From Gemmatimonadota bacterium (lineage in GTDB: Bacteria > Gemmatimonadota > Gemmatimonadetes > Gemmatimonadales > GWC2-71-9): DNA of 64,000 nucleotides. Of the stretch, positions 26,665-52,362 are shown one piece after another. The stretch lies in assembly GCA_041488455.1 (NCBI GenBank), contig JBGPPG010000004.1:143-64142 (forward strand), read 5' to 3'. The notes beneath the pieces were generated by a model. The model did not search any database. It was not told where the DNA came from and worked only from the letters and a program-made list of their open reading frames with translations. Every line of letters begins with the position of its first letter. Within the stretch, counting starts at the first letter, position 1. The position numbers and the translations under genes are program-made.

Positions 26665-26682
26665 CGCTTCATCTCCGCTTCA
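26665..26682 (+). promoter_or_regulatory. Phased CTTCA direct repeat (2 units, 11-bp period)
   Basis: CGCTTCAtctcCGCTTCA, ending 46 nt before the USP ATG at 26728. Confidence 0.5.
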
Positions 26683-26727
26683 CGCTCCCGGTGCTAACGA
26701 TGCTCCCATCGTGCCAGGGAGGCCCTG

Positions 26728-27690
26728 ATGTATCGCCGGATTGTCGTGCCGCTCGATGGCTCCGCCTTCGCCGAGGCAGCGTTGCCCGCCGCGGCCGCGA
26801 TCGCGCACCGGACGGAGGGGTGCCTCGAGCTGCTGATGGTGCACCAGTCGCAGCTCACCGGTGCGAGCCCGACGGCCGCGATGGAGCTCGACGTCCGCCT
26901 CCGCCAGGGCGAGAGCGCCTACCTGACGCAGCAGGCGAGACGCATCCCGAGCCCCGAGATCGCGGTCACATCGGCGTTGCTCGACGGCCCGGTCGTATCG
27001 ACGCTGATCGCGCACGCGCGATCGACGAACGCCGATTTGGTCGTGATGAGCACGCATGGCCGGGGCGGAATCAGCCGCTTCTTCCTTGGCAGCACCGCTG
27101 ACCGGCTGGTCCGCGATCTCCATTGTCCGATCCTCCTCGTGCGTCCGACGCAGTCGCCGACCGCGTTCGGCCTAGGGAACGTTCGGCGGATTCTGATCCC
27201 CTTGGATGGCTCGCCGCTGGCCGAGTGCATCATCGACCAGCTGGGCACCTGCCTCTCGGGGATGCCCGCCTTGGAGCTGATCCGGGTGGTCGTGCCACCG
27301 ATCTTGACGCCGCCGCCAATGGCGGGCGCTTCGCCACCGATCGCCGCCGAAGTGCTCGACCAGAAGCTCGCCGTCGCCGACCAGTACCTTCAGGCGGTCG
27401 GCGCGAGGCTCCGGGCGCAGGGTTTCGCCGTTCGGGGCGCCGTGGTCCCCGATCTGAGCCCAGCCGCGGCGATCACCGCGCGCGCCGAGGAGCGCCAATG
27501 CGACGCCATCGCCCTCGCGACGCGTGGGTCGGGGGGCCTGGAGCGGGCGTTGCTCGGCAGCGTCGCCGACAAGGTGATCCGGACCGCGCAGGTCCCGGTG
27601 TTGGTGTGGAACCCGCCCGCCGACGCCGTGACTCGAGACCCGGACGCCAGGGCTGCCGCGGGCGCCGTGGGCACGGGGGTAGACGCGTGA
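26728..27690 (+). CDS. Tandem universal stress protein (USP)
   Basis: Two UspA-like halves, each with a STHGRGG...LGS(T/V)AD motif. GGGAGG RBS. Confidence 0.9.
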   Translation: MYRRIVVPLDGSAFAEAALPAAAAIAHRTEGCLELLMVHQSQLTGASPTAAMELDVRLRQGESAYLTQQARRIPSPEIAVTSALLDGPVVSTLIAHARSTNADLVVMSTHGRGGISRFFLGSTADRLVRDLHCPILLVRPTQSPTAFGLGNVRRILIPLDGSPLAECIIDQLGTCLSGMPALELIRVVVPPILTPPPMAGASPPIAAEVLDQKLAVADQYLQAVGARLRAQGFAVRGAVVPDLSPAAAITARAEERQCDAIALATRGSGGLERALLGSVADKVIRTAQVPVLVWNPPADAVTRDPDARAAAGAVGTGVDA

Positions 27691-28112
27691 CGCCGTCAAA
27701 GCGCGGTTCGGCCCTCCTAGCCGGCCTCGTGGTTCTGGTTGCCGGCGCAGCCGGGGCCCAGGTCAACCCGGAGCCACGGCCGGCGGGCGTGACGGACAGC
27801 GCGGTCGCGTGGGGGAAGGCGCTCTTCCACGGGTCGGCGAACTGCAGTGCCTGCCACGGCGCCGAGGGAAGCGGGACCGATGTAGGGCCGCCGCTGACCG
27901 GTGGCCTGTGGCTACACGGACCGGGCACTTACGAGTGGTTGGCCGACCAGATCCGGCGGGGAATCCCGGCGCATGGCTCGATGAGCGGACTGGCGATGCC
28001 GATGCGGGGTTGGTCGATGATGAGCGACCACGACGTGAGCGCCGTCGCGGCCTACGTCTGGTCGATCACTCACCCACCGCGATCTCCGCGGCCCATGCGA
28101 CGCTCGTCTTGA
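27687..28112 (+). CDS. Class I c-type cytochrome
   Basis: Signal peptide, haem motif CSACH and a distal Met region (GLAMPMRGW). GTG overlaps the USP stop. Confidence 0.8.
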   Translation: MTPSKRGSALLAGLVVLVAGAAGAQVNPEPRPAGVTDSAVAWGKALFHGSANCSACHGAEGSGTDVGPPLTGGLWLHGPGTYEWLADQIRRGIPAHGSMSGLAMPMRGWSMMSDHDVSAVAAYVWSITHPPRSPRPMRRSS

Positions 28113-28115
28113 GCG

Positions 28116-29894
28116 ATGCCGAGCCGCTACTTCCGCGCAATTGCGCTGGATTACGACGGTACGCTCACGACAAATGACCGGCCCGACGCAACGGTGCTCG
28201 ATGCCATCGCCGACGCTCGACGCGAGGGCCGACGGCTCATCCTGGTGACCGGGCGCATCCTGGCCGAGCTCGAGCAGGTCTTTCCGGAGGCGCGGGAGAG
28301 CTTCGACGCGATCGTGGCCGAAAACGGCGCCGTCGTCTGGCAGGCCACGAGAGGCGTGCGGACGGCGGCACTACCGGTGAGCGTGGCCCTCGAGGAGGCG
28401 CTCCGCGGACGGGGCATTCCGGTGCGACGCGGTCAGGTGCTGCTCGCCACCGCGGCCGTGTACGACCAGGCAATCCTGCAGGAGATCGCCCGGCTGGGGC
28501 TCGGGGATCAGCTCGTGCACAATCGTGCCGCGCTGATGGTGCTGCCGTCCGGAATCACGAAGGGGACGGGCCTCCTCGAGGCGCTGGACGACCTCGGCGT
28601 GTCGCATCACAGCACGATCGGCGCGGGGGACGCGGAGAACGACCACTCGCTTCTCGATGTCTGCGAGCTCGGGGTCGCGGTGGCCAATGCGGTGGATGGG
28701 CTCAAGGCGCGAGCCGATGTCGTCCTCGCCGAACCGGACGGGGCGGGTATCACGTCTCTCCTTCGAGGCGCGATCCTCCGCGAGGAGGTTCGCATACCGC
28801 CCAGGCGCTGGGAGGTCCGCCTGGGCACGCTCCCGGACGGGCGTGCGGCGACGGTGCCGGGGGCGCAGGTCAACGTGCTCATAACGGGAGGCACGCGGAG
28901 CGGAAAGTCGTGTCTTGCCGGGCTCTTCGCCGAGCGGCTGATGGCCCGGCGGTACTCAGTGTGCGTTCTTGACCCCGAAGGCGACCATCTGGGTCTGGGC
29001 CAGCTCCATGGCGTGATGACGCTGGGTGGCAACGAGCCGCTCCCCAGCGCCGAGCTGCTCCGGCGTATCCTCGGCCACGGTGTCGGGAGCGCGGTGATCG
29101 ACCTGTCGCTCAGGCCCGCTTCGGAAAAGCACGACTATTGCCGCCGGGCCCTCGAAGCCCTTGCCCGGGCACGCGAGGAGACGGGACTCCCGCATTGGGT
29201 GTTTGTCGACGAAGCGCATCTCCTGCTCGGGTCGCGGAATCCGCTCCTCCAGCCCGAGGATGTGCAGCGCGGCCTCTGCTTCGTGACCTACCGCCCTGGC
29301 GAGCTGGACTCCGCCACTCTGGAGGCGATCGACGTCGTGCTCACCACGCCCGGCACCGAGGCACTCGCGCTGGCGGATGCGCCGCTGCCTCCACGGCTCG
29401 CTGCTCAGGTCTCTCGCCCCGCACTCGAGCGGGAACTCGCCGGTCTGCCGCTGGGCTGGGCAGTCCTCTTCGATCGCGCGGGGCCGCGGCGTTTCGTGGT
29501 CGATCGCCGTACGAGCAGCCACATCCGTCACTGGCACAAGTACCTGCACGCTTCCCTGCCGCCGCATCAACGGTTCTTCTTCCGCGCGCCAACCTACGCC
29601 ACCGGCGTTGCCGCCGCGAACCTGGCGGAGTTCCACGACGCGCTGCTCCGAAGCCAGCCGGATGTCATCCGCCACCATGCGGCGTGCCGGGACTTCTCGC
29701 GTTGGCTCGGCGGCGTGATCCGGGACGACGATCTCGCGCGCGACGTCAGGGACATCGAACGGACGATCGAAGCTGGTGCGGACGTGGAGCTTCTGCGGCA
29801 GCAGCTGGTCGGCCTGATCGAGCAGCGATATCCGGAAGAGGGGCTGGATCAGGCGCCGGTCACTTGGTCTGTACGGCCTCGATCGCGATCGTGA
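28116..29894 (+). CDS. HAD-IIB phosphatase domain fused to a HerA/FtsK-like P-loop ATPase domain
   Basis: HAD motif I IALDYDGTL and motif IV GAGDAENDHSLL. Walker A ITGGTRSGKS and Walker B HWVFVDEAHLLLG. About 170 aa at the C-terminus have no recognisable motif. Confidence 0.8.
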   Translation: MPSRYFRAIALDYDGTLTTNDRPDATVLDAIADARREGRRLILVTGRILAELEQVFPEARESFDAIVAENGAVVWQATRGVRTAALPVSVALEEALRGRGIPVRRGQVLLATAAVYDQAILQEIARLGLGDQLVHNRAALMVLPSGITKGTGLLEALDDLGVSHHSTIGAGDAENDHSLLDVCELGVAVANAVDGLKARADVVLAEPDGAGITSLLRGAILREEVRIPPRRWEVRLGTLPDGRAATVPGAQVNVLITGGTRSGKSCLAGLFAERLMARRYSVCVLDPEGDHLGLGQLHGVMTLGGNEPLPSAELLRRILGHGVGSAVIDLSLRPASEKHDYCRRALEALARAREETGLPHWVFVDEAHLLLGSRNPLLQPEDVQRGLCFVTYRPGELDSATLEAIDVVLTTPGTEALALADAPLPPRLAAQVSRPALERELAGLPLGWAVLFDRAGPRRFVVDRRTSSHIRHWHKYLHASLPPHQRFFFRAPTYATGVAAANLAEFHDALLRSQPDVIRHHAACRDFSRWLGGVIRDDDLARDVRDIERTIEAGADVELLRQQLVGLIEQRYPEEGLDQAPVTWSVRPRSRS

Positions 29895-30513
29895 TCTCCA
29901 CCTCATTGCCGATCACCGGACCGGCGGCCAGCCACTCGTTCCAGATCATGCCGTAATCGCGCCGATCGATCACCGTGCTCGCATCGAAGGCGATGCGCGG
30001 GTGCCGGTCGGGATCCACGGCGATCCCCCGAAATTGGCCCGTGAGGACCACGTGGTGCGCGCGCCCCTTGATCGTGAGAATCCCGCCGATCTCCACTGTG
30101 CTGTCGCTTGCCACAATGTCGGTGCTTTCGAAGGTCAGCGATGGGAAGCTGTCGACCGCGAAGAAGCGGGCGGAGCGGAGATCAGCATCCCGATAAGCGT
30201 TGCCCGTGCTGAGGCTGGCGGTCTGCGCCGACACGTTCACGGTGCCGTGCGTCCAATCCTGATCCTTCGTGACGATGATGCCATACCAGTCGGTGAAGGT
30301 GCCGCGTACCCGGCCGACCAGGTGCCGGACGCGGAAATCGATCTGGGAGTGCACGGGATCGATCACCCATTTCGTGCCGGTGACAGCTGGATGACCGGAG
30401 GCACGGGGAACCGCCTGGGCCCTCGTGTGCGACGGCAGCGCGAGCACAAGTGCAGCGGTGACGAGGGCGCCCATACTCGCGGGGCGACGGATCATGCGGA
30501 TCATACGGATCAT
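29860..30513 (-). CDS. YceI-family periplasmic protein
   Basis: WVIDPVHSQIDFRVRHLVGRVRGTFTDW signature. Signal peptide present. Confidence 0.85.
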   Translation of the reverse strand: MIRMIRMIRRPASMGALVTAALVLALPSHTRAQAVPRASGHPAVTGTKWVIDPVHSQIDFRVRHLVGRVRGTFTDWYGIIVTKDQDWTHGTVNVSAQTASLSTGNAYRDADLRSARFFAVDSFPSLTFESTDIVASDSTVEIGGILTIKGRAHHVVLTGQFRGIAVDPDRHPRIAFDASTVIDRRDYGMIWNEWLAAGPVIGNEVEITIAIEAVQTK

Positions 30514-30534
30514 GGGGACCCCTTCTGGCGCCGA

Positions 30535-30936
30535 TCAGCCTGCGAGCCGGTGCGCGGCGAACGCCCGGACGATGTCGGTCTGGGAGATGACGCCTGCGAG
30601 CACGCCATCTGTCTCGACGAAGAGGCGGTGGACCTCTCCGTACAGCATGCGCTGCGCTGCCTCGCGCACGTCGGCATCTCCTGGAATCGTGAGCCCCGGG
30701 CGGGTCATCACGTCCTCCACCACCCGGTCTTCCCAGAGGCCGCCGCCTGCCATCAAGCTCTCGGCCTGGGCCTCGAGGATGTCCGTCGTCGACACAACGC
30801 CCAGGATCTTGCCGTGCCGGTCTACCACGGGAACGCCGCTGATGTGCGCGTCCGCCAACTCTTCCACCACATCGGCCAGGGTTTCGTCAGGGTGCACCGC
30901 CTGCACATCTCCGCGCATGAGGTCGGAGACTCTCAT
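30535..30936 (-). CDS. CBS-pair domain protein
   Basis: Two CBS repeats (GVPVVDRHGKILGVVSTTDIL and RLFVETDGVLAGVISQTDIV). Confidence 0.85.
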   Translation of the reverse strand: MRVSDLMRGDVQAVHPDETLADVVEELADAHISGVPVVDRHGKILGVVSTTDILEAQAESLMAGGGLWEDRVVEDVMTRPGLTIPGDADVREAAQRMLYGEVHRLFVETDGVLAGVISQTDIVRAFAAHRLAG

Positions 30937-33434
30937 GAGGCCACTCCTCCGGCTGCATGGGCGCGCCCGTCGGCCAGCCGATGGGTCACGGCCACCAGTG
31001 AATCGGGGTTCAGGGAAATCGAATCGATGCCGAGGCCGGCCAGGAATTCGGCGAAGTCGGGGTAGTCGCTCGGGGCCTGACCGCAGATCCCCACCTTGCG
31101 ACCTTTGCGGTGTGCCGCGCCGACCACCATCTCGATGAGCCGCTTGACACCGGGGTCGCGCTCGTCGAAGAGCGCGGACAGCAATTCCGAGTCGCGATCG
31201 ATGCCCAGCGTCAGCTGGGTCAGATCGTTCGACCCGATCGAGAATCCGTCAAACAGCTCGCCGAACTCCTCCGCGAGCACCACGTTGTTGGGAATCTCGC
31301 ACATCACATACACCTCGAGCCCGTTCCGCCCTCGTGCCAGGCCGTTGCGGTCCATCTCGGCGAGCACCTTTCCCGCTTCGCCCAGGGTCCGGCAGAAGGG
31401 GATCATGACCGTCGTGTTGGTCAACCCCATGTCGTCGCGCACCCGCCGGATCGCCGCGCACTCGAGCGCGAAGGCCTCGCGGTAACGCTCATGGTAGTAA
31501 CGGGAGGCGCCCCGGAAGCCGATCATGGGATTCGCCTCGGTGGGCTCGAACGCTGCCCCGCCCAGGAGCCCCGCGTACTCGTTGGTCTTGAAGTCCGAGA
31601 AGCGGACGATCACCGGGCGCGGGTAGAACGCGGCAGCGATCTGCCCAACGCCCGATGCCAGGCGTTCGATGAAGAACTCGGCGAGGGGCGAGACGCCGCC
31701 GGTTCGCTCTTCGATCTGTGCCCGGATCGATCGATCGGTCACCCGCTCCGGGTGCAGCAGGGCCATGGGATGGACACCGATCCACGAGGAGACGACGAAC
31801 TCGATGCGGGCGAGCCCGACTCCGGCGCTCGGCAGTCTGGCGAGGTGGAACGCGCGTTCGGGATTCCCCACGTTCAGCATCAGGGGGACCCTTGGTGTCG
31901 GAAGCGTCGCCGGGTCCAGCTCGGTGTGATCGAACTCCACGCGTCCCTCGTACACACGCCCCTCATCGCCTTCGGCGCAGGAGACGGTGACGACGGCGCC
32001 ATCCGCGAGCGTCTGCGTGGCCGTGCCGGTACCAACCACGCAGGGAATGCCGAGCTCGCGCGACACGATCGCCGCGTGGCAGGTCCGTCCGCCCTCGTCG
32101 GTGATCACGGCGGCCGCGCGCGCGAGCACGGGCTCCCAGTCGGGATCGGTCATCCGCGCCACCAGCACCTCGCCGGGGCGGAAGCTCGGCAGCGCTGCCG
32201 GCGACCCGACGACGTGCACCGGGCCTGCGGCGACCTGGGTGCCCACGCTCCGGCCCTTGAGCAGGACCCGGCCGGTGCCACGGCGCCGAAACAGAGACAG
32301 CCGGGGTGACTCCTGGGAGTGGACGGTTTCGGGGCGCGCCTGCACGACGAAGAGCTCCCCGCTGCGACCGTCCTTCGCCCATTCGAGGTCCATGGGCGTG
32401 GGCCGCCCGGCCCGGCGAGAATAATGCTCCTCGATCAGCACCGCCCAGCGGGCGAGCTGGAGCACTTCATCATCGCTCAGGACGAGACGCCGGCGGTCGG
32501 CAGCCGCGACACGGACCTCGGTCACGGCCTTCGAGCCGCCTTCGGCGTATACCAGCTTGACGCCTTTCGCGCCGATCTCGCGTCTGATGACGGCGCGGAA
32601 ACCGAGCGCGAGTGTGGGTTTGTGAATCCAGAACTCGTCGGGGCGGACACGGCCCTGGACCACCGTCTCTCCCAGGCCCCAGGCTCCGCTCACCAGCACC
32701 ACATCCCGAAAGCCACTCTCGGTATCAAGGGTGAAGATGACGCCCGCCGATCCCAGGTCGCTGCGAACCATCTTCTGGACCCCGACCGAAAGCGCCACCG
32801 CACGGTGGGCGAAGCCGTTGGCGGTGCGGTAAACGATTGCCCGATCGGTGAACAGGGAGGCAAAGCAGGCGCGCACGGCGGTATCGAGCGCCGCGACCCC
32901 ACGGACGTTCAGATAGGTCTCCTGCTGGCCGGCGAACGAGGCGGTTGGAAGGTCCTCTGCGGTCGCGCTGGACCGGACGGCCACGTCGGTTGCCGGGTCC
33001 CCGTAACGCTTCGAGAGAGCCTCGTAGGCGGCGGTGAGCTCGGCCGCGACCGCAGCCGGTAGGGGCGCTTCGGCGATCCGCTGTCGAATCGAACGCGCCG
33101 TGACGGCGAGTTGCGCCACGTCGCCTGGATCCAAGGCGTCCAACTCACGGTAGATCTCGTCGGCAAGCCGGTTCTGAGAGAGGTGCACGCGGAACGCGTC
33201 GGCCGTGACGGCGAACCCGTCGGGGACCTGAATGCCCTTGGGGACGAGGGCATGCACCATCTCTCCCAACGATGCGTTCTTGCCGCCGACCTGCGCCACC
33301 TGGTCGAGCGTGATGGCATTGAACGGGATGACATACTTCCCGGAGGATGGGAGTGCGGAATCGCGTCGCACGGACGGCGCAGCAGCCGGGGTCGCCAAGG
33401 TCATCACTCGCTTGAGGCCGGCTCCAATAGTCAC
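30933..33434 (-). CDS. ppsA: Phosphoenolpyruvate synthase (pyruvate, water dikinase)
   Basis: VGGKNASLGEM N-terminus, phosphohistidine motif GGRTCHAAIVSRELGIPCVVG and a PEP-utiliser TIM-barrel C-terminus. The true start may be ATG 33404. Confidence 0.92.
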   Translation of the reverse strand: MTIGAGLKRVMTLATPAAAPSVRRDSALPSSGKYVIPFNAITLDQVAQVGGKNASLGEMVHALVPKGIQVPDGFAVTADAFRVHLSQNRLADEIYRELDALDPGDVAQLAVTARSIRQRIAEAPLPAAVAAELTAAYEALSKRYGDPATDVAVRSSATAEDLPTASFAGQQETYLNVRGVAALDTAVRACFASLFTDRAIVYRTANGFAHRAVALSVGVQKMVRSDLGSAGVIFTLDTESGFRDVVLVSGAWGLGETVVQGRVRPDEFWIHKPTLALGFRAVIRREIGAKGVKLVYAEGGSKAVTEVRVAAADRRRLVLSDDEVLQLARWAVLIEEHYSRRAGRPTPMDLEWAKDGRSGELFVVQARPETVHSQESPRLSLFRRRGTGRVLLKGRSVGTQVAAGPVHVVGSPAALPSFRPGEVLVARMTDPDWEPVLARAAAVITDEGGRTCHAAIVSRELGIPCVVGTGTATQTLADGAVVTVSCAEGDEGRVYEGRVEFDHTELDPATLPTPRVPLMLNVGNPERAFHLARLPSAGVGLARIEFVVSSWIGVHPMALLHPERVTDRSIRAQIEERTGGVSPLAEFFIERLASGVGQIAAAFYPRPVIVRFSDFKTNEYAGLLGGAAFEPTEANPMIGFRGASRYYHERYREAFALECAAIRRVRDDMGLTNTTVMIPFCRTLGEAGKVLAEMDRNGLARGRNGLEVYVMCEIPNNVVLAEEFGELFDGFSIGSNDLTQLTLGIDRDSELLSALFDERDPGVKRLIEMVVGAAHRKGRKVGICGQAPSDYPDFAEFLAGLGIDSISLNPDSLVAVTHRLADGRAHAAGGVAS

Positions 33435-33444
33435 CCACGCTCCA

Positions 33445-33471
33445 TGAAGGGGTGGTGAAGACGGCGAGAAG
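33445..33471 (-). promoter_or_regulatory. Phased CTTCA array (3 units) oriented toward ppsA
   Basis: The plus strand reads TGAAG (33445), TGAAG (33456) and AGAAG (33467), exactly 11 nt apart. Confidence 0.5.
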
Positions 33472-33508
33472 GAATCTTGGTGGCCGCCGGCGGATCGGCT
33501 CAGCCGAC

Positions 33509-33535
33509 TCTCACATCGCCTTCACGCCCGCTTCA
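33509..33535 (+). promoter_or_regulatory. Phased CTTCA array (3 units) oriented toward hsp20
   Basis: TCTCA (33509), CTTCA (33520), CTTCA (33531). Ends 79 nt before ATG 33614. Confidence 0.5.
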
Positions 33536-33613
33536 GGGCGGCAGAGCGATAGTGGTGATGCGTTGTGGTCGTCCAAGAGTCACTTTGCAGGTCACTGAGG
33601 CAAGGAGGTCAGC

Positions 33614-34057
33614 ATGAAGCTCACCAAAGCAGCGCCCACCGCTCTCGCCACCGTGCGCGACGATTTCGATCGGCTCTTCGACCGGATGTGGAACACGGGC
33701 GTGTTCGGAGCGCCACCTCGCGCATTCGAGACGATGTGGTCGCCATCGCTGGACTTCTCGGAGAACGAGAATGAGTACATCGTGCGGGTGGAAGCCCCGG
33801 GGATCCCCAAAGAGGATCTCGAGGTGAAGCTCGACGGGCAGAACCTCACGATTTCCGGGCGTCGGGAGTTCGAGAAGGAGGAGAAGACTGAGGAGTACTT
33901 TTGGCGGGAGCGCGAGGCCGGGAGATTCGTGCGCACCGTCCAACTGCCCGGCGCGGTTGAGCTGGCGAAGATCGCCGCAACCTATCAGGATGGAATCATG
34001 ACGGTCCGCCTGCCGAAGGCAGAGCCGGCCGAGAAGACCCGCATCCAGATCAAGTGA
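33614..34057 (+). CDS. Hsp20/alpha-crystallin small heat-shock protein
   Basis: Alpha-crystallin core (DFSENENEYIVRVEAPGIPKEDLEVKLDGQNLTISG...GIMTVRLPK). AAGGAGG RBS. Confidence 0.9.
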   Translation: MKLTKAAPTALATVRDDFDRLFDRMWNTGVFGAPPRAFETMWSPSLDFSENENEYIVRVEAPGIPKEDLEVKLDGQNLTISGRREFEKEEKTEEYFWREREAGRFVRTVQLPGAVELAKIAATYQDGIMTVRLPKAEPAEKTRIQIK

Positions 34058-35459: not shown

Positions 35460-35556
35460 TCTTGGCCTGGATCTCGGCGATGGGGTCGGCTGGAAAGTAG
35501 GGTCCGTTCCATGTCGAGAGCCCGAGATTTGTGTGAAACTCCCCTTACGCCGGGAA

Positions 35557-35584
35557 GGCTCACGGCGCTTTCACACTTCGCTCA
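35557..35584 (+). promoter_or_regulatory. Phased (C/T)TCA array (3 units) oriented toward the GGDEF gene
   Basis: GGCTCA, CTTTCA and CGCTCA, ending at 35562, 35573 and 35584. Lies 44 nt before ATG 35628. Confidence 0.4.
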
Positions 35585-35627
35585 TGCCGCCGGGTCGATC
35601 TTTCCCGGGCTAGCGAGGTCGAGCTCT

Positions 35628-36947
35628 ATGGCACACGAGCCTCCCGAATTCCATGCCGACTTCCGGGCAGTGATCGACGCGTCCCCTGACGCTGTGTTGA
35701 TCGTCGATCGCGCGGGCACGGTCGTCGCGCTCAATCGCCCGGCGGAAACGCTGTTCGCCGTCACGGGCGACCAGCTTCGGGGGCAGCCGGTTGAGACGCT
35801 CCTGCCCACACGCCTCCGGAGGGCGCACGCGGCAGCCCGCGCCGCGTATGCGGTTGCGCCCCTGGTGCGGCCGATGAGCGCCCGGAGCGACCTCGTGGGG
35901 CTACGGGCCGACGGAAGCGAGTTTCCCGTGGAAGTGTCGCTTGTGCCCGTACTCGGCTCCCCTGAGGGTCTGGTGATGGCGGTGGTGCGCGACATCGCCG
36001 CGCGTGGCCGGCTCGAAGCAGCGTTGGAGCGCGGCGACCGAGCGGCGGGGGCACTCGAGGCGATGCCCGACGCCATTCTGACGACCGACGCCGCCGGCGC
36101 GGTGGACTTTCTCAACCACGCGGCGGAGCAGCTCACCGGCCGGAGCCGCGAGGCAGCGCTCGGCCGACCCCTCCGCGAGGTCTTGCCGCTCGCGAGCGAA
36201 TCGAGCGGCGAACCGCTGGAGATCCCGGTGCCCCGGTGTCTCCGGGAGGGACTTCCTGCAGGCCCGCTCGAGGCGGTGTGGGCTGCGGGCCCCCGCCGCG
36301 AGAGACGGGTGCTCGACATTTCGGCGGCGCCGATCCGGGATCGGTCCGGCGCAGTCGTCGGCGCCACGGTCGTCGCGCGGGACGTGACCCGTGCGCAGAT
36401 GATCGCACGCGAGCTCTCGCACCAGGCGACGCATGACGCGCTCACCGGACTGGTGAACCGGGTCGAATTCGAGCGTCGCCTGGACCGCGCGCTGGCGAGC
36501 GCAGCGGAAGAGCACATCGAGCATGCGCTTTGCTTTCTTGACCTGGACGGGTTCAAGAAGGTGAACGACGCCCACGGCCATCTGGCGGGTGATGAGTTGC
36601 TGCGCCAGCTGGGCGGCGTGCTGCGTGAGCACATGCGCTCCCGGGACACGCTGGCGCGCCTGGGGGGCGACGAGTTCGGCATGCTGCTGGAGCATTGCAA
36701 GCTGCCGAAGGCCGGCCGGATCGCGGAGGGTATCCGGCGCGCGATCGGCGCCTGCCGGTTCAGGTCTGGCGCTGAGAGCTGCGCTCTGGCGGCCAGCGTC
36801 GGAGTGGTACCCGTCCGGGGGGACAGCGGGGGTGCGAACGAGGTCCTGCGCGCCGCGGACGCGACCTGTTACGCCGCGAAGCGGGGTGGGGGGAACCGGA
36901 CCGCGCTGCACGATCCAAAGCAGCGGCCGATGTTGCGTCGGGGCTGA
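35628..36947 (+). CDS. PAS-PAS-GGDEF diguanylate cyclase
   Basis: Two PAS-like modules, then HDALTGLVNR...GGDEFGMLL. Confidence 0.88.
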   Translation: MAHEPPEFHADFRAVIDASPDAVLIVDRAGTVVALNRPAETLFAVTGDQLRGQPVETLLPTRLRRAHAAARAAYAVAPLVRPMSARSDLVGLRADGSEFPVEVSLVPVLGSPEGLVMAVVRDIAARGRLEAALERGDRAAGALEAMPDAILTTDAAGAVDFLNHAAEQLTGRSREAALGRPLREVLPLASESSGEPLEIPVPRCLREGLPAGPLEAVWAAGPRRERRVLDISAAPIRDRSGAVVGATVVARDVTRAQMIARELSHQATHDALTGLVNRVEFERRLDRALASAAEEHIEHALCFLDLDGFKKVNDAHGHLAGDELLRQLGGVLREHMRSRDTLARLGGDEFGMLLEHCKLPKAGRIAEGIRRAIGACRFRSGAESCALAASVGVVPVRGDSGGANEVLRAADATCYAAKRGGGNRTALHDPKQRPMLRRG

Positions 36948-36950: not shown

Positions 36951-37874
36951 TCAATCGCGACCGGCCTGGACGGGGACGACCAGTACCGGGTCCGTAGCGC
37001 CGCGAACCACCTTATCGACCACGCTGCCGAGCAGCAGCCGCTCGGCCCCGTGCCTGCCGGGCGTGCCCACCGCGATGGCTCCGCTGCCCAGTTTATGGGC
37101 GAGCGCAAGGATCTGAGCCCCAATACCCCGGGCGGCGACCACGTGCGTCGTCACCCCGACACCCAAGGTCCGCAGTCCCCCGGCAAGGCGCTCCAGGCTG
37201 GCCGTTGCTTCGGATTGCTGTTGCTCGATGAGCTCGGCGCCGATCGGGTTGGGATAGACGGTCAGATCATCGACGATCGGGACGGGCGGCTCGACAACTT
37301 GGACGAGCGAGCAGTGTGCTTCGTGGTATAGCGAGGCTAGGGCAGCGGCCACCTCGAGCACCTTCTGGTCAGCCGAAGACCCGTCGAGCGCCACCAGTAT
37401 GTGGCGAAAGTCCGTCCGTTGGGGCTGCTCCTTAGACCGGAGCAGCAAGACTGGCGTCGTTGTGCGCCGGAGCAGCCGGTCCGCCACGCTCCCGAGCCAG
37501 AAACGGCCAAGGCCGCTCCGGCCATGCGTGGTCATGACGATGAGCCCGATCTGTTTAGTGCGGGCGTAGTCAGCCAGCGCCTCGGCCGGTGGGCCGTCGA
37601 GCACGACGCCGGTGGCTTCCAGACCGTGGCAGGTGGCGACGGCCTCGGCCGTGATCGCGAGATAGGCGCGTACGCGCTGCTCCGCCTCACGCTCGATGCT
37701 CTTCGCGATCTCAGCGGGGACATGTGGATACCGGGGCGCCACCGGCTGCACAAAAGCGAGCTGGAGCGCTGCGCCGGCTCGCCGGGCCAGAGCGGCGGCC
37801 ACTGGAATGGCCTTCTCCGCAAGCGGTGATCCGTCGACCGGGACCAGCGTCGGGCTGAACCGCGAGGTCCCCAT
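36951..37874 (-). CDS. Tandem universal stress protein (USP)
   Basis: Two UspA halves (TTHGRSGLGRFWLGSVAD and GTPGRHGAERLLLGSVVD). Confidence 0.9.
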   Translation of the reverse strand: MGTSRFSPTLVPVDGSPLAEKAIPVAAALARRAGAALQLAFVQPVAPRYPHVPAEIAKSIEREAEQRVRAYLAITAEAVATCHGLEATGVVLDGPPAEALADYARTKQIGLIVMTTHGRSGLGRFWLGSVADRLLRRTTTPVLLLRSKEQPQRTDFRHILVALDGSSADQKVLEVAAALASLYHEAHCSLVQVVEPPVPIVDDLTVYPNPIGAELIEQQQSEATASLERLAGGLRTLGVGVTTHVVAARGIGAQILALAHKLGSGAIAVGTPGRHGAERLLLGSVVDKVVRGATDPVLVVPVQAGRD

Positions 37875-37881
37875 AGCTCTT

Positions 37882-38094
37882 CTACTTGTGGTCCTCGAGC
37901 AGGAAGGAGAGCTTCGCGTTCACGCGGAACTCGACGATCTTGTCTCCCTGGACGACGCCGTTGAAATTGTCGATCCAGATGCTCTTGATACCCCGTACGG
38001 TCTTCGCCGCTTCTTTCACGGCTTGCTGTGCCGCGTCGTCGAAGCTCTTCTCGGACTGGGCGATGACCTCGATCACCTTCACGAGCGTGCTCAT
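37882..38094 (-). CDS. Dodecin-family flavin-binding protein
   Basis: 70 aa. VKVIEVIAQSEKSFDDAAQQAVKEAAKTVRGIKS...FRVNAKLSF is typical of dodecin. Confidence 0.85.
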   Translation of the reverse strand: MSTLVKVIEVIAQSEKSFDDAAQQAVKEAAKTVRGIKSIWIDNFNGVVQGDKIVEFRVNAKLSFLLEDHK

Positions 38095-38117
38095 GGATGC
38101 CCTCCGAACCTATGGGG

Positions 38118-38660
38118 TCATGCTCGACCTCTGATCAGGGCCACGGTGCTGGCCTGGGGCCCCTTGTCGCCCGGCTCCGCAGCGTACCGCACCTCGGCGC
38201 CCAGCTCCAGGCGGTCAAACGCGGCATCCAAGACACTGTGCCTGTCGAAGTAGATCTCGCAGCCGTTCGGTGTGGTGAGAAATCCGTAGCCCTCCCAGGG
38301 CAACAGGCGAGTCACGACAGCGCGCGGGGCAGTGTGGGTGAGCTTGATATCCCCACGCTGCTTCCGGATCCGGTCTTGCAGGCGCCGGGCAGCTGCCCTG
38401 AAAGCCTCCTGCGCAGCGGTGAGCAGGGTCTCGTCGGCCTGCCGCTTGATCACGATCTCGCTGCCGGGGACGGCGACGTCGATGCGGACGTTGTACCGGT
38501 TTCCCGTCTGGCGTCTCCGGCTCTGGAGCTCGAGCAGCACCCGGCAGCTCGTAATCCGGCTCGCGAACGATTCGAGCTTCGCAGCCGCGTTCCGGATCAT
38601 CTGCTCGTCGGCCGGCGACAGCTCGAAGTTGCGGGTGGCGATCTGCAACGGCAGTTCCAT
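38118..38660 (-). CDS. HPF/RaiA ribosome-hibernation domain fused to a cold-shock (CSD) domain
   Basis: N-terminal S30AE-like region (LQIATRNFELSPADEQMIRNAAAKLESF...IDVAVPG...AFRAAARRLQDRIRKQ). C-terminal CSD (EGYGFLTTPNGCEIYFDRHSV...GDKGPQASTV). Confidence 0.8.
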   Translation of the reverse strand: MELPLQIATRNFELSPADEQMIRNAAAKLESFASRITSCRVLLELQSRRRQTGNRYNVRIDVAVPGSEIVIKRQADETLLTAAQEAFRAAARRLQDRIRKQRGDIKLTHTAPRAVVTRLLPWEGYGFLTTPNGCEIYFDRHSVLDAAFDRLELGAEVRYAAEPGDKGPQASTVALIRGRA

Positions 38661-38745
38661 GGTTCCCTTGTATTCGCTCAATCCCGAGCGGAGGCCGCGC
38701 CCGGACGGGTGACCCCGATGCTCCAAGGCACCGGGGTCAGGTGCC

Positions 38746-39414: not shown

Positions 39415-39555
39415 ACATCCCTCCTGATCGGGCCCTGCTCGGCGACTGCGATGACGAGCTCCTTCCGGAGCGTGCCTCCAATGCAGCACCAGTCTACGAT
39501 GGCGGCTGTGAAGCAGCGATGAAGCCGGCGCGAAGTTTCTTTCGGGCGCGCCGCG

Positions 39556-40042: not shown

Positions 40043-40070
40043 CCTCTGTCACGATGCCCCATCGCATTCA

Positions 40071-41452: not shown

Positions 41453-41890
41453 CTACATAGGCACGCGGGGGTTTTGCTTCTCGACCAGGTGACCGATGGA
41501 GTGCGCATCCAGGCTGAGCAGATCCAGAACGTCGTCCAGACTGAGAATCCCGACCATCGGGTGGTCCTTGCCCGTCACGATCAGCCGCCGGGTCCCGGCG
41601 ACCGCCATCTTCGAAACCGCATCTTCGATCGCTGCGTCCTCACCCACCGTCTGCACCGGCGTGCTCATCACTTTCGTGACGGGCATTATATCTGGGTCGC
41701 CGTCCCTCGCGACGCAGCGGATCACGATGTCCCGATCCGTGAGGATACCGATCGCGTGGCTCCCTGCATCAGGCTCGACGACGACGACGGTTCCGACATC
41801 ATGCTCCGCCATGCGCCGCGCCGCCGCTCTCACGCTCTCCGAGGGCAACGCCGTCACGACGGCCCGACTGCACAAGCCTCCTGCCGTCAT
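41453..41890 (-). CDS. CBS-pair domain protein
   Basis: Two CBS repeats (GTVVVVEPDAGSHAIGILTDRDIV and RLIVTGKDHPMVGILSLDDVL). The ATG overlaps the upstream stop (ATGA). Confidence 0.85.
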   Translation of the reverse strand: MTAGGLCSRAVVTALPSESVRAAARRMAEHDVGTVVVVEPDAGSHAIGILTDRDIVIRCVARDGDPDIMPVTKVMSTPVQTVGEDAAIEDAVSKMAVAGTRRLIVTGKDHPMVGILSLDDVLDLLSLDAHSIGHLVEKQNPRVPM

Positions 41891-42618
41891 TGCTGCCTCC
41901 CCGCGGATTCGCCGACTGCCACCCGCAGATAGCGCTCGAACCAAGCGCGCGCCAGCTCCGCGACCCGATCGAGCGTACCGGGCTCCTCGAAGAGGTGCCC
42001 AGCGCCCGGGACGATCACGAGTTGCTTCGCGCCCACCTGGAGGTGGGCGAGCGCGGTTCGATTCATCTCGATGACCGGCGTATCGTATCCCCCGACGATG
42101 AGGAGCGTCGGCGCCTTCACCCGGGGGAGGTACGGCCCCGCGAGGTCGGGGCGGCCGCCGCGGGAGACGACCGCGTGAACCGACTGCGGCCGGAGCGCGG
42201 CGGCGACCAGTGCCGCTCCCCCCCCGGTGCTGGCTCCGAAATAGCCTACCGGCAGCCGGCGCAGCTCCGGCCGGGACGCTACCCAGTCAGTGGCCTGAGC
42301 CAGCCGCTCCGCCAACAGGGCGATGTCGAAACGCAGCTCGGCCGTGACCGCGTCGCGCCGCTCTTCCTCCAGAGTGAGAAGGTCGAACAGCAGCGTCGCG
42401 AAGCCCCCCTCCTGGAGCTGCCCGGCGACCCGACGATTCCTCGGACTCTGCCGGCTGCTTCCACTCCCGTGCGCAAAGACGACCATGCCACGCGGCACGG
42501 CCGGCACGACGAGATCGCCGTCAAGCGCTACGCTGCCCGCGCGGATCCGCACCGACCAGGCTTGGGGATAAGGGGTTTGCGACAACCTAGTCTCCTGCTG
42601 TCTGCCCCGGGCGCTCAC
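41887..42618 (-). CDS. Dienelactone-hydrolase-like alpha/beta hydrolase
   Basis: VVFAHGSGSSRQSPRN, nucleophile elbow GASTGGGAAL and a C-terminal GAGHLFEEPG. Confidence 0.8.
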   Translation of the reverse strand: MSARGRQQETRLSQTPYPQAWSVRIRAGSVALDGDLVVPAVPRGMVVFAHGSGSSRQSPRNRRVAGQLQEGGFATLLFDLLTLEEERRDAVTAELRFDIALLAERLAQATDWVASRPELRRLPVGYFGASTGGGAALVAAALRPQSVHAVVSRGGRPDLAGPYLPRVKAPTLLIVGGYDTPVIEMNRTALAHLQVGAKQLVIVPGAGHLFEEPGTLDRVAELARAWFERYLRVAVGESAGRQQ

Positions 42619-43970
42619 AGCGCCGACGGGTAGGTCTCGAGCAATTCGGGTTCGCCGCGCTCCCAGAGGGGCGTGCGCTCCAGCGGCTCCACCGCGCGCG
42701 TATGGTCATAGTGGAACACGGCATCGAACTGGTGCGGGAGCCGGGCGCCGAAATAGTGGCTCGGACGCTCGGTCTCCGGACGGTAGATCACGCCGATTGC
42801 ACGCTCTAGCCGCGGCTGCTCGAGGGCGGCAATGGCATCGCCGGGAGAGCGTAGATCGAGGAAGAAGTTGCCCAGTCCGCACTCGTGAAACAACGCTTCG
42901 TAACTCTCGGGCAGCGCCGGCCGAACCATCTTTCGCTCGGCGTCGGCGTTCCAATCGGATGCGGCCGTCACCGTGCCGGTGTAGGTCGTGAACCCGACCA
43001 GGATGGCCGCGCGCCCATAGCGCTCGCGGATCAGCTGCCCGACGTTGAGCTCGCCGCGCCGGGAGCCCATTTCCGTCGCCCGGGCGTCGCCCAGGTGTGA
43101 GTTGTGGGCCCAGACCACGATCTTTGCGCGTCGCGGGTCCGCCTCGAGGAAGGCACTCAGGGCGCCAAGCGTCTCGGCCATGTGCTGATCGCGGAGGTTC
43201 CAGGAGGCCGCATGATCCTCGAACATGGCCCGGTAGTACCGCTCGGCGTTCGCGACGACTTTGGCGTTCTGCTCTGCGAAGAAGAGATCGTCGGGAGCCA
43301 GGCGGCCGTCCCGCTTGGCGTACTCGGCGGCTGCGGCCCGGAGCTCGACCAGCTGGCTGATGACCGCAGTCTCGCATGAGGGGGCGAGCCTGAGCTTGGT
43401 GGTGTAGCCGTACACTTGCGGGTCGCCGCCGAAGCTCTCGAAGCAGGCGTACCGGTGCGCTGCCCTCACCGCCGCCTCGGGGTCCACCACCTTCAGATAG
43501 TCGACCACCGCGTGCATGGAGGCGTGCAGGCTGTACAGGTCGAGGCCGTAGAAGCCGGCCTTGGCAGGGTCGGCGTCCCGGTCGTCGTTGTGCTCGCGCA
43601 GCCATCCGACGAAGTCGAGGACGTCGGCGTTGCGCCACATCCACTGGGGGAACCGCGCGAAGCCGCTCAGGGCGTCCGCAGCGTCGGCGTCCTTCGAGCG
43701 GCCGCGCACGTAGCGGTTCACCCGGTAGGCGTCGGGCCAGTCGGCCTCGACCGCGACGGCGCTGAAGCCCCTCTCGCGGATGAGCCGTTTGGTGATCTCG
43801 GCGCGCACCCGATAGAAGTCATGGGTGCCGTGCGACGCCTCGCCCAGCAGCACGAGCCGCGCATCGCCCACGGCGGCGAGCAGTGGGTCGAAGTCGGCGG
43901 GCGTGCCGTGCAGCCGATGGGCCGCGTCCCGAACCGCGGCGACGACCAGACGGTCAGCGCCGGGCGGCAT
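42615..43970 (-). CDS. Erythromycin-esterase-family protein
   Basis: LLGEASHGTHDFYRVRAEITKRLIRERGFSAVAVEADWPDAYRVNRYV signature. Confidence 0.85.
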   Translation of the reverse strand: MPPGADRLVVAAVRDAAHRLHGTPADFDPLLAAVGDARLVLLGEASHGTHDFYRVRAEITKRLIRERGFSAVAVEADWPDAYRVNRYVRGRSKDADAADALSGFARFPQWMWRNADVLDFVGWLREHNDDRDADPAKAGFYGLDLYSLHASMHAVVDYLKVVDPEAAVRAAHRYACFESFGGDPQVYGYTTKLRLAPSCETAVISQLVELRAAAAEYAKRDGRLAPDDLFFAEQNAKVVANAERYYRAMFEDHAASWNLRDQHMAETLGALSAFLEADPRRAKIVVWAHNSHLGDARATEMGSRRGELNVGQLIRERYGRAAILVGFTTYTGTVTAASDWNADAERKMVRPALPESYEALFHECGLGNFFLDLRSPGDAIAALEQPRLERAIGVIYRPETERPSHYFGARLPHQFDAVFHYDHTRAVEPLERTPLWERGEPELLETYPSAL

Positions 43971-44664
43971 GGCGCTTTTCCCTGTTCGCCAGCACCTCTG
44001 CGCCTTCAGCCGGCGCGGGCACGGCCGTGGCGTGCCGGAGCAGCGTGCGGACCTCCTCGTCGGTCGTCTGGGAGAAGTCGTGGTACCACATGCCCACGGC
44101 CTGAAACGCCTCCGGGATGGCCACGGCTTCGCACCGATCGGCCGCCCGCGACAGCATGTGCCAGGCGCTCTCCGACATCACCGGTGCGGCGGCGATGATC
44201 GCGCCGGGCCCATGCTGCCGCAGCGCGTGGATGGCTGCCAGCATGGTGGCGCCGGTTGCCACCCCATCGTCGATCAAGATCACCGTCTTCCCCCGCAGAT
44301 CGGGGAAGGGGCGGCCGACGCGATAGTCACGCTCGCGGCGCTCCAGCTCGATCTGCTCGGACGCTGCGACCGAGTCGGCCACCTCGCGGGGAATGTTGAG
44401 GCGCCGAAGCACGTCCTGGCTCTGGACGCGAATGCCGCCGCTGGCGATCGCTCCCATGGCGAACTCCGGATGGCCCGGCACGCCAAGCTTACGCACGACG
44501 AAAACGTCCAGCGGGGCGCCGAGCGCCGTCGCCACCTCGGCGGCGACCGGTACTCCTCCACGGGGAAGGCCGAGCACGACCAGATCGGTCCGTCCAGTGA
44601 AGGTGGACAGTCGGCTGGCGAGCTGGCGTCCGGCGTCGTGGCGATCGGAAAAGGGAAGCGTCAT
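43954..44664 (-). CDS. Phosphoribosyltransferase-domain protein
   Basis: FSDRHDAGRQLASRL, LGLPRGGVPVAAEVA and PRPP loop VILIDDGVATGATM. Confidence 0.85.
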   Translation of the reverse strand: MTLPFSDRHDAGRQLASRLSTFTGRTDLVVLGLPRGGVPVAAEVATALGAPLDVFVVRKLGVPGHPEFAMGAIASGGIRVQSQDVLRRLNIPREVADSVAASEQIELERRERDYRVGRPFPDLRGKTVILIDDGVATGATMLAAIHALRQHGPGAIIAAAPVMSESAWHMLSRAADRCEAVAIPEAFQAVGMWYHDFSQTTDEEVRTLLRHATAVPAPAEGAEVLANREKRHAARR

Positions 44665-44674: not shown

Positions 44675-45139
44675 CTAAAGGTCCGTCAGGGCACGGCATT
44701 GATCGGCGGCACTGCTCCCCGATCTGTTGGCTGCTCCCCGAAATGATGGCACGTCGAGGATGAAGCAAGCATGAGAAAAGGCGGAAACGCCTTTAGAGGG
44801 CCGGCGCGCCAGGGTGTCGAGCAGCATGGCATCGTAATCGCCGGGCTCCAGGCCGTACTTTCCCGCCGCGCGCAATTCGTCGATCGCGGCGAATCCCGCT
44901 CGCGAGAGTTGCGACCCGTCGTGCCAGATCAAGGTGTCGGGCGGAGCACCATAGAGCCGGGACACGTCCGTCACGTAGCGGCCGAAGTCGGGCCACCGTG
45001 CCTATGGATGTCGCGCGGTCGCGATGAGCGTCCGGACCGAGACAGCGGCGCTATCTTGGGCACCGGCGGCAACCGGCGTCACCCACCCGAGCGCAAGGAT
45101 GGCTGCCAGCAGGCGAAGCGATCGTGAGAATCTCTTCAG
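44675..45139 (-). pseudogene. Remnant of a YcbB-like L,D-transpeptidase N-terminus (in-frame TAG, truncated)
   Basis: Signal peptide KRFSRSLRLLAAILALGWVTPVAAGAQ...ARHP, then TAG (45002-45004), then in the same frame ARWPDFGRYVTDVSRLYG...AGKYGLEPGDYD. No catalytic domain follows. There is no ATG or GTG at the N-terminus (CTG). Confidence 0.5.
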
Positions 45140-51264: not shown

Positions 51265-52242
51265 CTAGTGGCCGGCGGCCAGGGCCGGCGATCGCTCGGC
51301 AGCCCCGACGGCGGCGAGCACCCGGCTCCACGCGCCCGGCGGCGGATTCCAGACCAGGAGCGGCACCTGGGCCCCGCGGGCCAGCTTGTCCGCTACGCTG
51401 CCGAGCAGCATTCGCTCGACACCGCCCAGCCCGTGGGTCGCGACGGCGATCAGATCGGACCGATGAGTCACCGCATGGGTAAGGATCGCATCGGCGACGG
51501 ACGGGTCGATGTGCACCTCGGTGTGAACCTGGAGACCCAGCGTGCGAAGGCGCACCGCCACGGCGTGCACGTACCGGTTTGCGGCCAGCAACTCCTGCTT
51601 CTCTTTGGCGGCTAGCGCAAACGGTGCCTCGACGGGGAGTAGGAGTCCGCGGAGCGGGGCCACGACCTGGACCAGTTCGAGCACGACCTCATCTCGGGGA
51701 AACACCGCGAGGACCTGGTCGATCACCGACTCGGCAAGCGGAGACCCGTCCAGCGGGACGAGGACGCGCCGCCGACGATCCGGCCGAAACCTCGTGACGA
51801 CGCTCCCGGCGTGCACCAGCAGGAGCGGGCAATGAAGCTGACGCATCAGTCGATCGGCGACGCTGCCCAGGAAGAGGCGACTCACCGTTCCGCGTCCATG
51901 GGTGCTCATGACGAAGAGGTGCGGCTCGCGAGACCTGGCATACGCGATCAGCATCGGTGCCGCCGGCCCCTCGAGTACCACGGGCGTAGCGGTCACGCCC
52001 GACTCGACCGAAACGCGGTCGGCGGTCTTGCGCAAGTAGGCCTCCTCGTCGGACCGGATCTGTTGATCGAGCGCCAGCACGGCATCCGCGCCCGGCTCGG
52101 CCCCAGGCACGATCGGGGGAAGGGAGTGTGCCAGCACCAGCTCCAGCGGCTCCCCGAGTCTCGTCGCGACCTCGACGGCGAGCGGAAGCGCTTCTTCCGC
52201 GAAGGTGGAGCCGTCGAGTGGGACGATGATTGGCTTGGCCAT
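51265..52242 (-). CDS. Tandem universal stress protein (USP)
   Basis: Two UspA halves (STHGRGTVSRLFLGSVAD and ATHGLGGVERMLLGSVAD). GGAGGA RBS. Confidence 0.9.
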   Translation of the reverse strand: MAKPIIVPLDGSTFAEEALPLAVEVATRLGEPLELVLAHSLPPIVPGAEPGADAVLALDQQIRSDEEAYLRKTADRVSVESGVTATPVVLEGPAAPMLIAYARSREPHLFVMSTHGRGTVSRLFLGSVADRLMRQLHCPLLLVHAGSVVTRFRPDRRRRVLVPLDGSPLAESVIDQVLAVFPRDEVVLELVQVVAPLRGLLLPVEAPFALAAKEKQELLAANRYVHAVAVRLRTLGLQVHTEVHIDPSVADAILTHAVTHRSDLIAVATHGLGGVERMLLGSVADKLARGAQVPLLVWNPPPGAWSRVLAAVGAAERSPALAAGH

Positions 52243-52286
52243 CCATGGTCCTCCGTGAGGGACACCACACCCTATTCCCTCGGCTG

Positions 52287-52313
52287 TGAAGCGAGGATGA
52301 AGCCCGGGCGAAG
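52287..52313 (-). promoter_or_regulatory. Phased CTTCA array (3 units) oriented toward the USP at 52242
   Basis: The plus strand reads TGAAG (52287), TGAAG (52298) and CGAAG (52309). The proximal unit lies 45 nt before the ATG. Confidence 0.5.
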
Positions 52314-52335
52314 CCGGCGTCATCCCGGGAACGAC

Positions 52336-52362
52336 CGTCACGGAGCCTTCACCGAGCCTTCA
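52336..52362 (+). promoter_or_regulatory. Phased CTTCA array (3 units) oriented toward ORF 52437
   Basis: CGTCA (52336), CTTCA (52347), CTTCA (52358), within GAGCCTTCAccGAGCCTTCA. Confidence 0.5.

Follow-up and report, generated by a model that had tools for sequence, protein, structure and literature searches.

The window analysed here is a 64-kb stretch of a metagenomic contig from a Gemmatimonadota bacterium (64,000 nucleotides of JBGPPG010000004.1; G+C content 69%), and the element in question is a CTTCA pentamer, repeated at intervals of 11 bp, which precedes stress genes in the central part of this DNA. Genes were called by third-position G+C and then annotated with Pfam, and the closest named relatives of the window's proteins belong to Gemmatimonadales metagenome-assembled genomes. 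The stress genes form an island at 26.7-52.9 kb, which encodes three tandem universal stress proteins (USPs), a cytochrome c, a HAD/DUF5752 protein, YceI, two CBS-pair proteins, PpsA, Hsp20, cyclopropane-fatty-acid synthase, a PAS-GGDEF protein, dodecin, HPF (S30AE), a triple-BON protein, baeRF (a bacterial eRF1-like protein), dienelactone hydrolase, erythromycin esterase, a phosphoribosyltransferase (PRTase), and two P-type ATPases. The first 26 kb of the window hold unrelated genes, including MoxR/DUF58, a PAS hybrid kinase, a receiver-HD-GYP protein, homoserine dehydrogenase, an M1 peptidase, and others. The putative targets of the pentamer arrays, annotated by Pfam except for the last, are:

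26728..29894, plus strand: tandem USP, cytochrome c, and HAD/DUF5752 protein
29860..33407, minus strand: ppsA and a CBS-pair protein
33614..34057, plus strand: Hsp20 / alpha-crystallin
35628..36947, plus strand: PAS-PAS-GGDEF diguanylate cyclase (start at 35628, giving 439 aa, the same as in the related locus L081)
36951..39810, minus strand: small ORF (39556-39810); BON, HPF (S30AE), dodecin, and tandem USP
40071..41150, minus strand: baeRF (bacterial eRF1-like)
41453..44664, minus strand: PRTase, erythromycin esterase, dienelactone hydrolase, and CBS pair
51265..52242, minus strand: tandem USP
52437..52931, plus strand: conserved ORF without a Pfam family, with homologues in the regulator loci described below

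Membership of YceI in the ppsA/CBS unit is uncertain because a 168-nt gap precedes it.

The phased-pentamer pattern is real and far beyond chance. Exact matches to CTTCA-N6-CTTCA occur seven times in the window against 0.04 expected (100 dinucleotide shuffles, none of which held more than one), and matches with at most one mismatch occur 13 times against 1.19 expected. The enrichment is specific to the 6-nt spacer, as spacers of 3-5 and 7-11 nt yield 0-1 matches. All seven exact matches are intergenic, in a window of which only about 19% is intergenic, and each is directed at the adjacent gene start, in keeping with the claim of a first-pass annotation that the arrays point toward the downstream gene. 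Within the 3.4 kb of island intergenic DNA, the most over-represented 5-mer is CTTCA/TGAAG itself (22 vs 6.3, p=8e-7). The 26 kb upstream of the island contain no match to CTTCA-N6-CTTCA with up to one mismatch, and downstream of the island the sole such match, at 53323, lies within a coding region; the impression that comparable arrays are rare in unrelated DNA was thus well founded, as was the significance that had been judged by eye. The eight arrays originally listed are all present, with their coordinates, pentamers, and orientation as described, including the array placed 44 nt before the ATG of the GGDEF gene. The list was nevertheless incomplete, having overlooked two strong sites, at 39509-39535 (BON) and 41288-41303 (baeRF).

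The anatomy of the element was defined from an alignment of 55 non-identical sites, which belong to the window and to related loci and were picked solely by their exact two-unit core, so that their flanks are unbiased. Reading toward the gene, the elements are an optional inverted TGAAG, 4 nt, a first unit (U1) of the form nTTCn, and two further units (U2 and U3) of CTTCA, with unit starts 11 bp apart. U1 is in phase 11 bp upstream of U2 and is merely nTTCn (T in 39/55 and T in 48/55), and a conserved AA is part of the inverted TGAAG, which lies 9 nt upstream of U1. A TAnnnT hexamer follows U3 after 11-12 nt (A+29 in 46/55, T+33 in 45/55), and the columns of these sites at which a -35 element would be expected are not conserved. 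The hexamer is a putative -10 element, which would centre the units near -49, -38, and -27. The ten sites of the window are as follows:

26647..26700, plus strand, USP/cytochrome c/HAD operon: TGAAG 26647-26651; U1 AGCTA 26656-26660; U2 CTTCA 26667-26671; U3 CTTCA 26678-26682; -10-like TAACGA 26695-26700
33427..33480, minus strand, ppsA: U1 CTTCT 33467-33471; U2 CTTCA 33456-33460; U3 CTTCA 33445-33449; -10-like GACTAT 33427-33432
33500..33553, plus strand, hsp20: U1 TCTCA 33509-33513; U2 CTTCA 33520-33524; U3 CTTCA 33531-33535; -10-like GATAGT 33548-33553
35549..35602, plus strand, PAS-GGDEF, a weaker site: GCTCA 35558-35562; TTTCA 35569-35573; GCTCA 35580-35584; -10-like GATCTT 35597-35602
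39491..39544, minus strand, BON/HPF/dodecin/USP: U1 CTTCG 39531-39535; U2 CTTCA 39520-39524; U3 CTTCA 39509-39513; putative -10 TAGACT 39491-39496
39998..40051, minus strand, small conserved ORF 39556-39810: TTTCA 40038-40042; TTTCA 40027-40031; CTTCA 40016-40020; putative -10 TAGCTT 39999-40004
41270..41323, minus strand, baeRF (eRF1-like): inverted TGAAG 41319-41323; U2 CTTCA 41299-41303; U3 CTTCA 41288-41292; -10-like CAGCTT
44743..44796, minus strand, PRTase/erythromycin esterase/dienelactone hydrolase/CBS operon: TTTCC 44783-44787; TCTCA 44772-44776; CTTCA 44761-44765; -10-like CATCAT
52269..52322, minus strand, USP 51265-52242: U1 CTTCG 52309-52313; U2 CTTCA 52298-52302; U3 CTTCA 52287-52291; putative -10 TAGGGT
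52327..52380, plus strand, ORF 52437-52931: U1 CGTCA 52336-52340; U2 CTTCA 52347-52351; U3 CTTCA 52358-52362; putative -10 TAGCAT

Two regions, ppsA/hsp20 and USP/ORF 52437, thus carry back-to-back arrays for divergent genes. In the window, the partner of the inverted unit is a degenerate U1, unlike at the promoter of the candidate regulator described below, and the palindrome TGAAG-N4-CTTCA does not occur in the window even when one mismatch is allowed.

The GGDEF site (35558-35584) and the PRTase-operon site (44761-44787), the latter originally called weak, are not significant by their pentamers alone, and support for them comes from an independent matrix trained on 40 sites from loci L086-L167 only, with no sequence from the window or its near relatives. 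This matrix places exactly ten window positions on top, with scores from 45.0 down to 12.8 bits; given as the first base of U2 and the strand, they are, in order, 33460- (ppsA, 45.0 bits), 39524- (BON, 41.8), 52302- (USP, 33.4), 33520+ (hsp20), 44776- (PRTase operon, 27.9), 41303- (baeRF, 24.7), 52347+ (ORF 52437, 20.3), 26667+ (first USP), 35569+ (GGDEF, 17.6), and 40031- (small ORF, 12.8). For comparison, the maxima of 100 shuffles have a mean of 7.3, a 95th percentile of 12.1, and a maximum of 17.5 bits. Scored on flanks only, for which the 99.9th percentile across the window is 5.7, the PRTase-operon site still reaches 19.0 bits and the GGDEF site 14.7. A first matrix, seeded from window sites, had been circular and had left these two sites within the shuffle range, and it was replaced by the regulator-locus matrix. 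A degenerate array also lies before the cyclopropane-fatty-acid synthase gene (likely start 35459), at 35472-35538 on the minus strand (TTTCA-N6-TCTCG-N6-CGACA, 12 nt, TACTTT); with 19.5 bits in its flanks and just 7.2 in total, it may be a very weak or decayed site.

In relatives, conservation was followed through loci containing a homologue of the window's first USP, which is 87% identical in L082, 73% in the syntenic L081, 60% in L083/L084, 58% in L085, and 50% in L086. CTTCA-N6-CTTCA precedes the USP gene in every one of L081-L086. L081 has further sites before ppsA, a CBS gene, and the GGDEF gene, where position and GATCTT hexamer are the same as in the window, and at the hsp20-type position; additional sites also occur in L083/L084 and L086. 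Near-identical triple arrays to that of hsp20 are found in L081, L083/L084, and L086, and the motif also occurs with the small-ORF homologues of L086 and L114. When five orthologous USP promoters (from 87-58% relatives) are aligned, the columns that do not vary are TGAAGA, the two CTTCA units, and the TA of the putative -10, and the spacers between units have diverged. Because the units are conserved while the spacers are not, the sites are not copies of a repeat element. Conservation upstream of orthologous genes in relatives, which the first-pass annotation had proposed as a check, was therefore found. A PpsA search served as a negative control: its best match is 71% identical, its matches come from many phyla, and their loci show no motif enrichment.

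Two hsp20-type arrays in these relatives stand apart from any hsp20 gene. In L086, a copy of the promoter (GGCTCAGCCGAT-CCTCACATCGACTTCA...) at 14456-14500 lies between a USP gene and a convergent P-type ATPase gene, without a downstream gene, and looks like a remnant after gene loss; in L081, the array at 18472-18500 has no called hsp20. In L083, the region upstream of the USP promoter (1-9459) encodes a contractile injection system (sheath, tube, and baseplate) in place of the window's peptidase and glycosyltransferase genes, so that the left border of the island is not syntenic.

Direct repeats at 11-bp spacing, with U3 11-12 nt before TAnnnT and no -35 element, have the class II layout known from PhoB and PmrA and accord with the earlier suggestion of a winged-helix (OmpR/PhoB-type) operator. 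No protein with a Trans_reg_C domain is encoded in the 64-kb window according to Pfam, as had also been remarked, and a candidate is seen in relatives only. In L086 (536 kb), four genes behind motifs (USP, GGDEF, and small-ORF genes) have in their midst an OmpR-family regulator and a kinase of GAF-HisKA-HATPase layout, and L168 likewise has an OmpR-family regulator and a GAF kinase amid motif-bearing USP genes. The candidate regulator is a 232-aa protein with a receiver and a winged-helix Trans_reg_C domain. Used as a query against a metagenome collection, it yielded 80 loci at 83-93% identity, and the NCBI names of the members of this regulator cluster are Gemmatimonadales. These loci contain 40 exact sites in 518 kb, compared with 0-9 for other spacers, and 80 unrelated ppsA loci, taken as a control, contain seven exact sites in 1.3 Mb. 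Neighbours of the regulator across the 80 loci include the kinase (59), USPs (23), and homologues of window ORF 52437 (14), each of the last behind a motif; genes for Hsp20, BON, CBS, and Dps proteins lie behind motifs in several loci.

The regulator gene itself is preceded by the element, its upstream 70 nt reading TGAAG-N4-CTTCA-N6-nTTcc-N6-nTTCA-N11-TAGATT-N7-ATG. Of 74 distinct sequences upstream of the regulator gene, 65 have an exact CTTCA at about -51 and 60 have the inverted unit. This promoter starts within the last codons of the kinase gene, and as TAGATT lies only 7 nt from the ATG, the regulator mRNA is probably leaderless and made from an internal promoter. Possession of its own operator-bearing promoter implies positive autoregulation of the regulator gene. 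The regulator and kinase genes are presumably co-transcribed as well. In 34 of 39 kinase-upstream regions there is a site on the opposite strand, serving a divergent gene that is often a USP gene. Across L086-L168, the inverted TGAAG lies about 60-70 nt before the regulator ATG, at or just past the end of the kinase gene, and in L086 it overlaps the kinase TGA stop.

The partner kinase, which like the regulator was found in relatives, is a soluble protein of GAF-HisKA-HATPase layout that begins with a cytoplasmic GAF domain and whose HisKA is PF00512. The closest PDB matches of this GAF domain are the haem-binding GAF-A domains of DosT (2vzw, E=1.7e-45) and DevS (2w3d, E=1e-37), and the match spans the segment GFPxHHPPMxxFLGVP and the motif LYLTEK. 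A conserved His and Tyr lie 22 residues apart along the 2vzw chain, like His147 and Tyr169 of DosT, which serve, respectively, as proximal haem ligand and as the distal residue that discriminates between ligands (PMC4082495). Because the GAF domain is of the DosT/DevS type with both residues conserved, the signal is likely low O2, NO, CO, or the haem redox state. A USP is among the genes that Gemmatimonas phototrophica induces under lowered oxygen (PMC11406998), which lends weak outside support to the mechanism proposed below.

Taken together, these observations make it probable that the phased pentamers serve as operator for an activator of the OmpR/PhoB family, which depends on phosphorylation and switches on a hypoxia/dormancy-type stress regulon. 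Low O2, NO, CO, or a change in haem redox state would lead the kinase to phosphorylate the regulator, a dimer of which would then bind U2 and U3 in head-to-tail fashion along one helical face, with U1 and the inverted unit perhaps holding a second dimer. From the -35 position, the regulator would recruit RNA polymerase via sigma region 4, in the manner of PhoB/PmrA, and so turn on both the island and its own gene in a self-amplifying loop. PhoB/PmrA-family regulators are known to bind head to tail on half-sites 11 bp apart and to contact sigma region 4 (PMC3973317).

Several points weigh against this proposal. That the regulator is present in this genome is assumed, as the 64-kb window encodes none, and the loci in which it was found come from relatives whose target proteins are just 37-66% identical to those of the window. 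Its link to the motif consists of co-localisation and an autoregulation-like site, and another OmpR-type protein could bind the motif and control the regulator gene. That TAnnnT is the -10, and that the regulator would activate and not repress, are both deduced from the layout of the promoters. The full inverted TGAAG is found at only two of the ten window sites, and the usual third phased unit and frequent inverted fourth unit have no counterpart in the pho box. Finally, the small-ORF site is borderline by score, and yet it shows a TAGCTT hexamer and three units in phase.

The strongest competing explanation, which we nonetheless regard as unlikely, is that the operator belongs to a different protein, either another OmpR/SARP-type winged-helix protein or an unrelated factor, and that the DosT-like kinase/OmpR pair is merely one of its targets. 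The candidate regulator is tied to the motif only via its neighbourhood and the site before its own gene, and some loci do encode other regulators (Rrf2 in L086, MarR in L085, and GerE-type regulators in L168). Direct repeats at 11 bp, however, suit the OmpR family and not the dimeric palindrome binders Rrf2, MarR, and GerE; nor do these recur across loci, whereas the candidate is present in all 80 of the loci collected with it. Its conservation (83-93% identity) is also far above that of the kinase (61-81%) or of the target proteins, which fits an invariant motif.

It is less probable still that the same protein acts as a repressor, occluding the -35 region until a stress signal arrives, even though the sites overlap the promoter core region and repression is known for OmpR-family proteins. 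These promoters offer no -35-like hexamer for RNA polymerase to use after a repressor leaves, the fixed distance of 11-12 nt to the putative -10 is the activator layout of PhoB/PmrA, and regulators under positive feedback typically have a site before their own gene, as here. A stress regulon with a common upstream motif at a fixed distance from a downstream hexamer could also suggest promoter elements of an alternative sigma factor, for example of the extracytoplasmic function (ECF) type. This we consider very improbable, since two to four units repeated in helical phase are no sigma recognition pattern, the distances from unit to downstream hexamer are 11-12 and 22-23 nt as opposed to the 16-18 nt of -35/-10 pairs, and TAnnnT resembles the -10 of the housekeeping sigma factor. 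That the pattern arose by chance or from base composition, or that it is a dispersed repeat, might have been suspected from a survey that accepted one-mismatch pentamers and judged significance by eye, and can be dismissed given that no shuffle reached the seven exact matches, that a single spacer length is enriched, and that units are kept among diverged spacers at sites conserved across relatives.

The proposed activator is most readily compared with PhoB and PmrA/BasR, whose boxes likewise consist of direct repeats at 11 bp that replace the -35 and end about 10-12 bp before the -10, here a putative one. The core differs, being CTTCA and not CTTAA or CTGTCAT; the PmrA box, for instance, is composed of CTTAAG / xTTAAT with 5 bp between and is bound head to tail (PMC3973317). 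Unlike PhoR and PmrB, which are membrane kinases, the candidate kinase is a soluble haem-GAF sensor. The regulator's nearest solved relatives include BasR, PrrA, MtrA, and RegX3, and it does not reach the curated cut-off of any NCBIfam equivalog (PhoB, PmrA, CusR, MtrA, and CreB among them), so that it is none of these or any other named regulator. Identity with PmrA/BasR was rejected on the grounds of the core sequence and of a score of 190.3 bits against NF007928, for which the cut-off is 330. CusR/CopR, the automatic JGI name, was rejected as well: although TIGR01387 is the best-scoring NCBIfam subfamily and a P-type ATPase adjoins the regulator in L086, the score is 234.9 bits against a cut-off of 279.2, the kinase lacks a periplasmic sensor and has a GAF domain like that of DosT, and the genes near the regulator and under the motif encode USPs, Hsp20, and BON proteins as opposed to copper efflux functions.

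In signal and output genes, the system parallels the mycobacterial dormancy system DosS/DosT-DosR (DevSR). The kinase GAF of the relatives is a close homologue of the haem GAF-A of DosT/DevS, the regulator would likewise be autoregulated, and the genes behind the motif resemble the DosR regulon in comprising tandem USPs, Hsp20, a CBS pair, HPF/S30AE, and PRTase with erythromycin esterase. Rv2629 is eRF1-like, and the P-type ATPase CtpF, a member of the DosR regulon, is comparable to the ATPases of the island. The counterparts in the DosR regulon are hspX for Hsp20, Rv2623-type USPs, the CBS protein Rv2626c, and the S30AE protein Rv0079 (PMC7387457, PMC4082495), and Rv2030c is a PRTase fused to an erythromycin esterase (PMC7387457). 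The DNA-binding side of the system is different: the regulator is OmpR-type (Trans_reg_C) and not NarL/LuxR-type (GerE helix-turn-helix), and the operator consists of direct pentamers and not of the 20-bp Dev-box palindrome. With GGGAC-N4-GTCCC as the Dev-box consensus, matches with up to two mismatches are not enriched (68 vs 79 expected). The candidate kinase also has one GAF domain and HisKA, not the HisKA_3 of DosS/DosT, and the host belongs to Gemmatimonadota, not Actinomycetota. The system is therefore DosR-like in its signal and output genes and is not a DosR member, as both a NarL-type regulator and the Dev box are absent.

It is tempting to speculate that soil Gemmatimonadales have a dormancy/hypoxia regulon with DosR-equivalent content, run by a DosT-type haem-GAF and HisKA kinase through an OmpR regulator that acts at the -35 position on one inverted and three direct CTTCA-type pentamers, with leaderless self-amplification from an internal promoter, a proposal to which we give an even chance. 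The sensing domain and the set of controlled genes may, moreover, have been retained across phyla, with a change of both operator and DNA-binding output; for this the case for and the case against appear to us equally balanced. If so, the system would be an apparently clean example of regulatory rewiring, in which another regulator family and another operator connect a haem sensor of the DosS/DosT kind with a DosR-like gene set. Gemmatimonadota are abundant in dry soils, and we found no described transcription-factor regulon for this phylum in the open-access literature; nor did we find there a prior description of the motif or of a haem-GAF kinase paired with an OmpR regulator, with NmpS and the CreB 'cre tag' included in the search. 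A defined operator, about ten target promoters on one contig, and a candidate sensor/regulator pair make the persistence physiology of the phylum directly testable, and stress regulons in metagenome-assembled genomes of Gemmatimonadales can be annotated with the aid of the motif.

Some further features of the window deserve mention. Two of its leaders are of interest, one of about 180-205 nt downstream of the motif promoter of the small ORF (39811-39998) and that of hsp20 (33554-33613), which has in common with L083 and L081 a short stretch, GTGATGCGyTGTGG, and is about 210 nt long in L083 (11999-12210). A thermosensor or other RNA element in the long leaders is possible; they match no known RNA family, as Rfam reported one tRNA only over the whole window. 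The only receiver domains in the window belong to a PAS-PAS-PAS hybrid histidine kinase (937 aa) and a receiver-HD-GYP protein (339 aa), encoded at 8520-12349 on the minus strand, which form a two-component pair of the cyclic di-GMP type with no DNA-binding output.

Two neighbouring type-II P-type cation ATPases (882 and 895 aa; 45209-50579, plus strand) lie inside the island with no motif site upstream, where there is a single CTTCA only, at 45134. Beyond the island, a tRNA-Arg(CCG) (58142-58215, minus strand) is followed by Dps/ferritin (58441-59004, plus strand) and catalase (60975-61976, plus strand) genes; these oxidative-stress genes lack a CTTCA array and are placed outside the regulon in this genome; unlike the Dps of the window, Dps homologues are present in the motif-rich regulator loci L126 and L130. 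The HPF (S30AE) protein (38118-38726, minus strand) has an apparent C-terminal cold-shock domain (E=1.4e-5; 25.3 bits, below the Pfam cut-off of 27), a fusion that, if real, would be unusual among hibernation factors. Lastly, a segment of lower G+C (59-64% vs 69%) within 52.9-57 kb contains a stand-alone gene resembling nonribosomal peptide synthetases (53304-56129, plus strand; AMP-binding, PP-binding, and thioesterase domains; 941 aa), and this segment may have been horizontally acquired.

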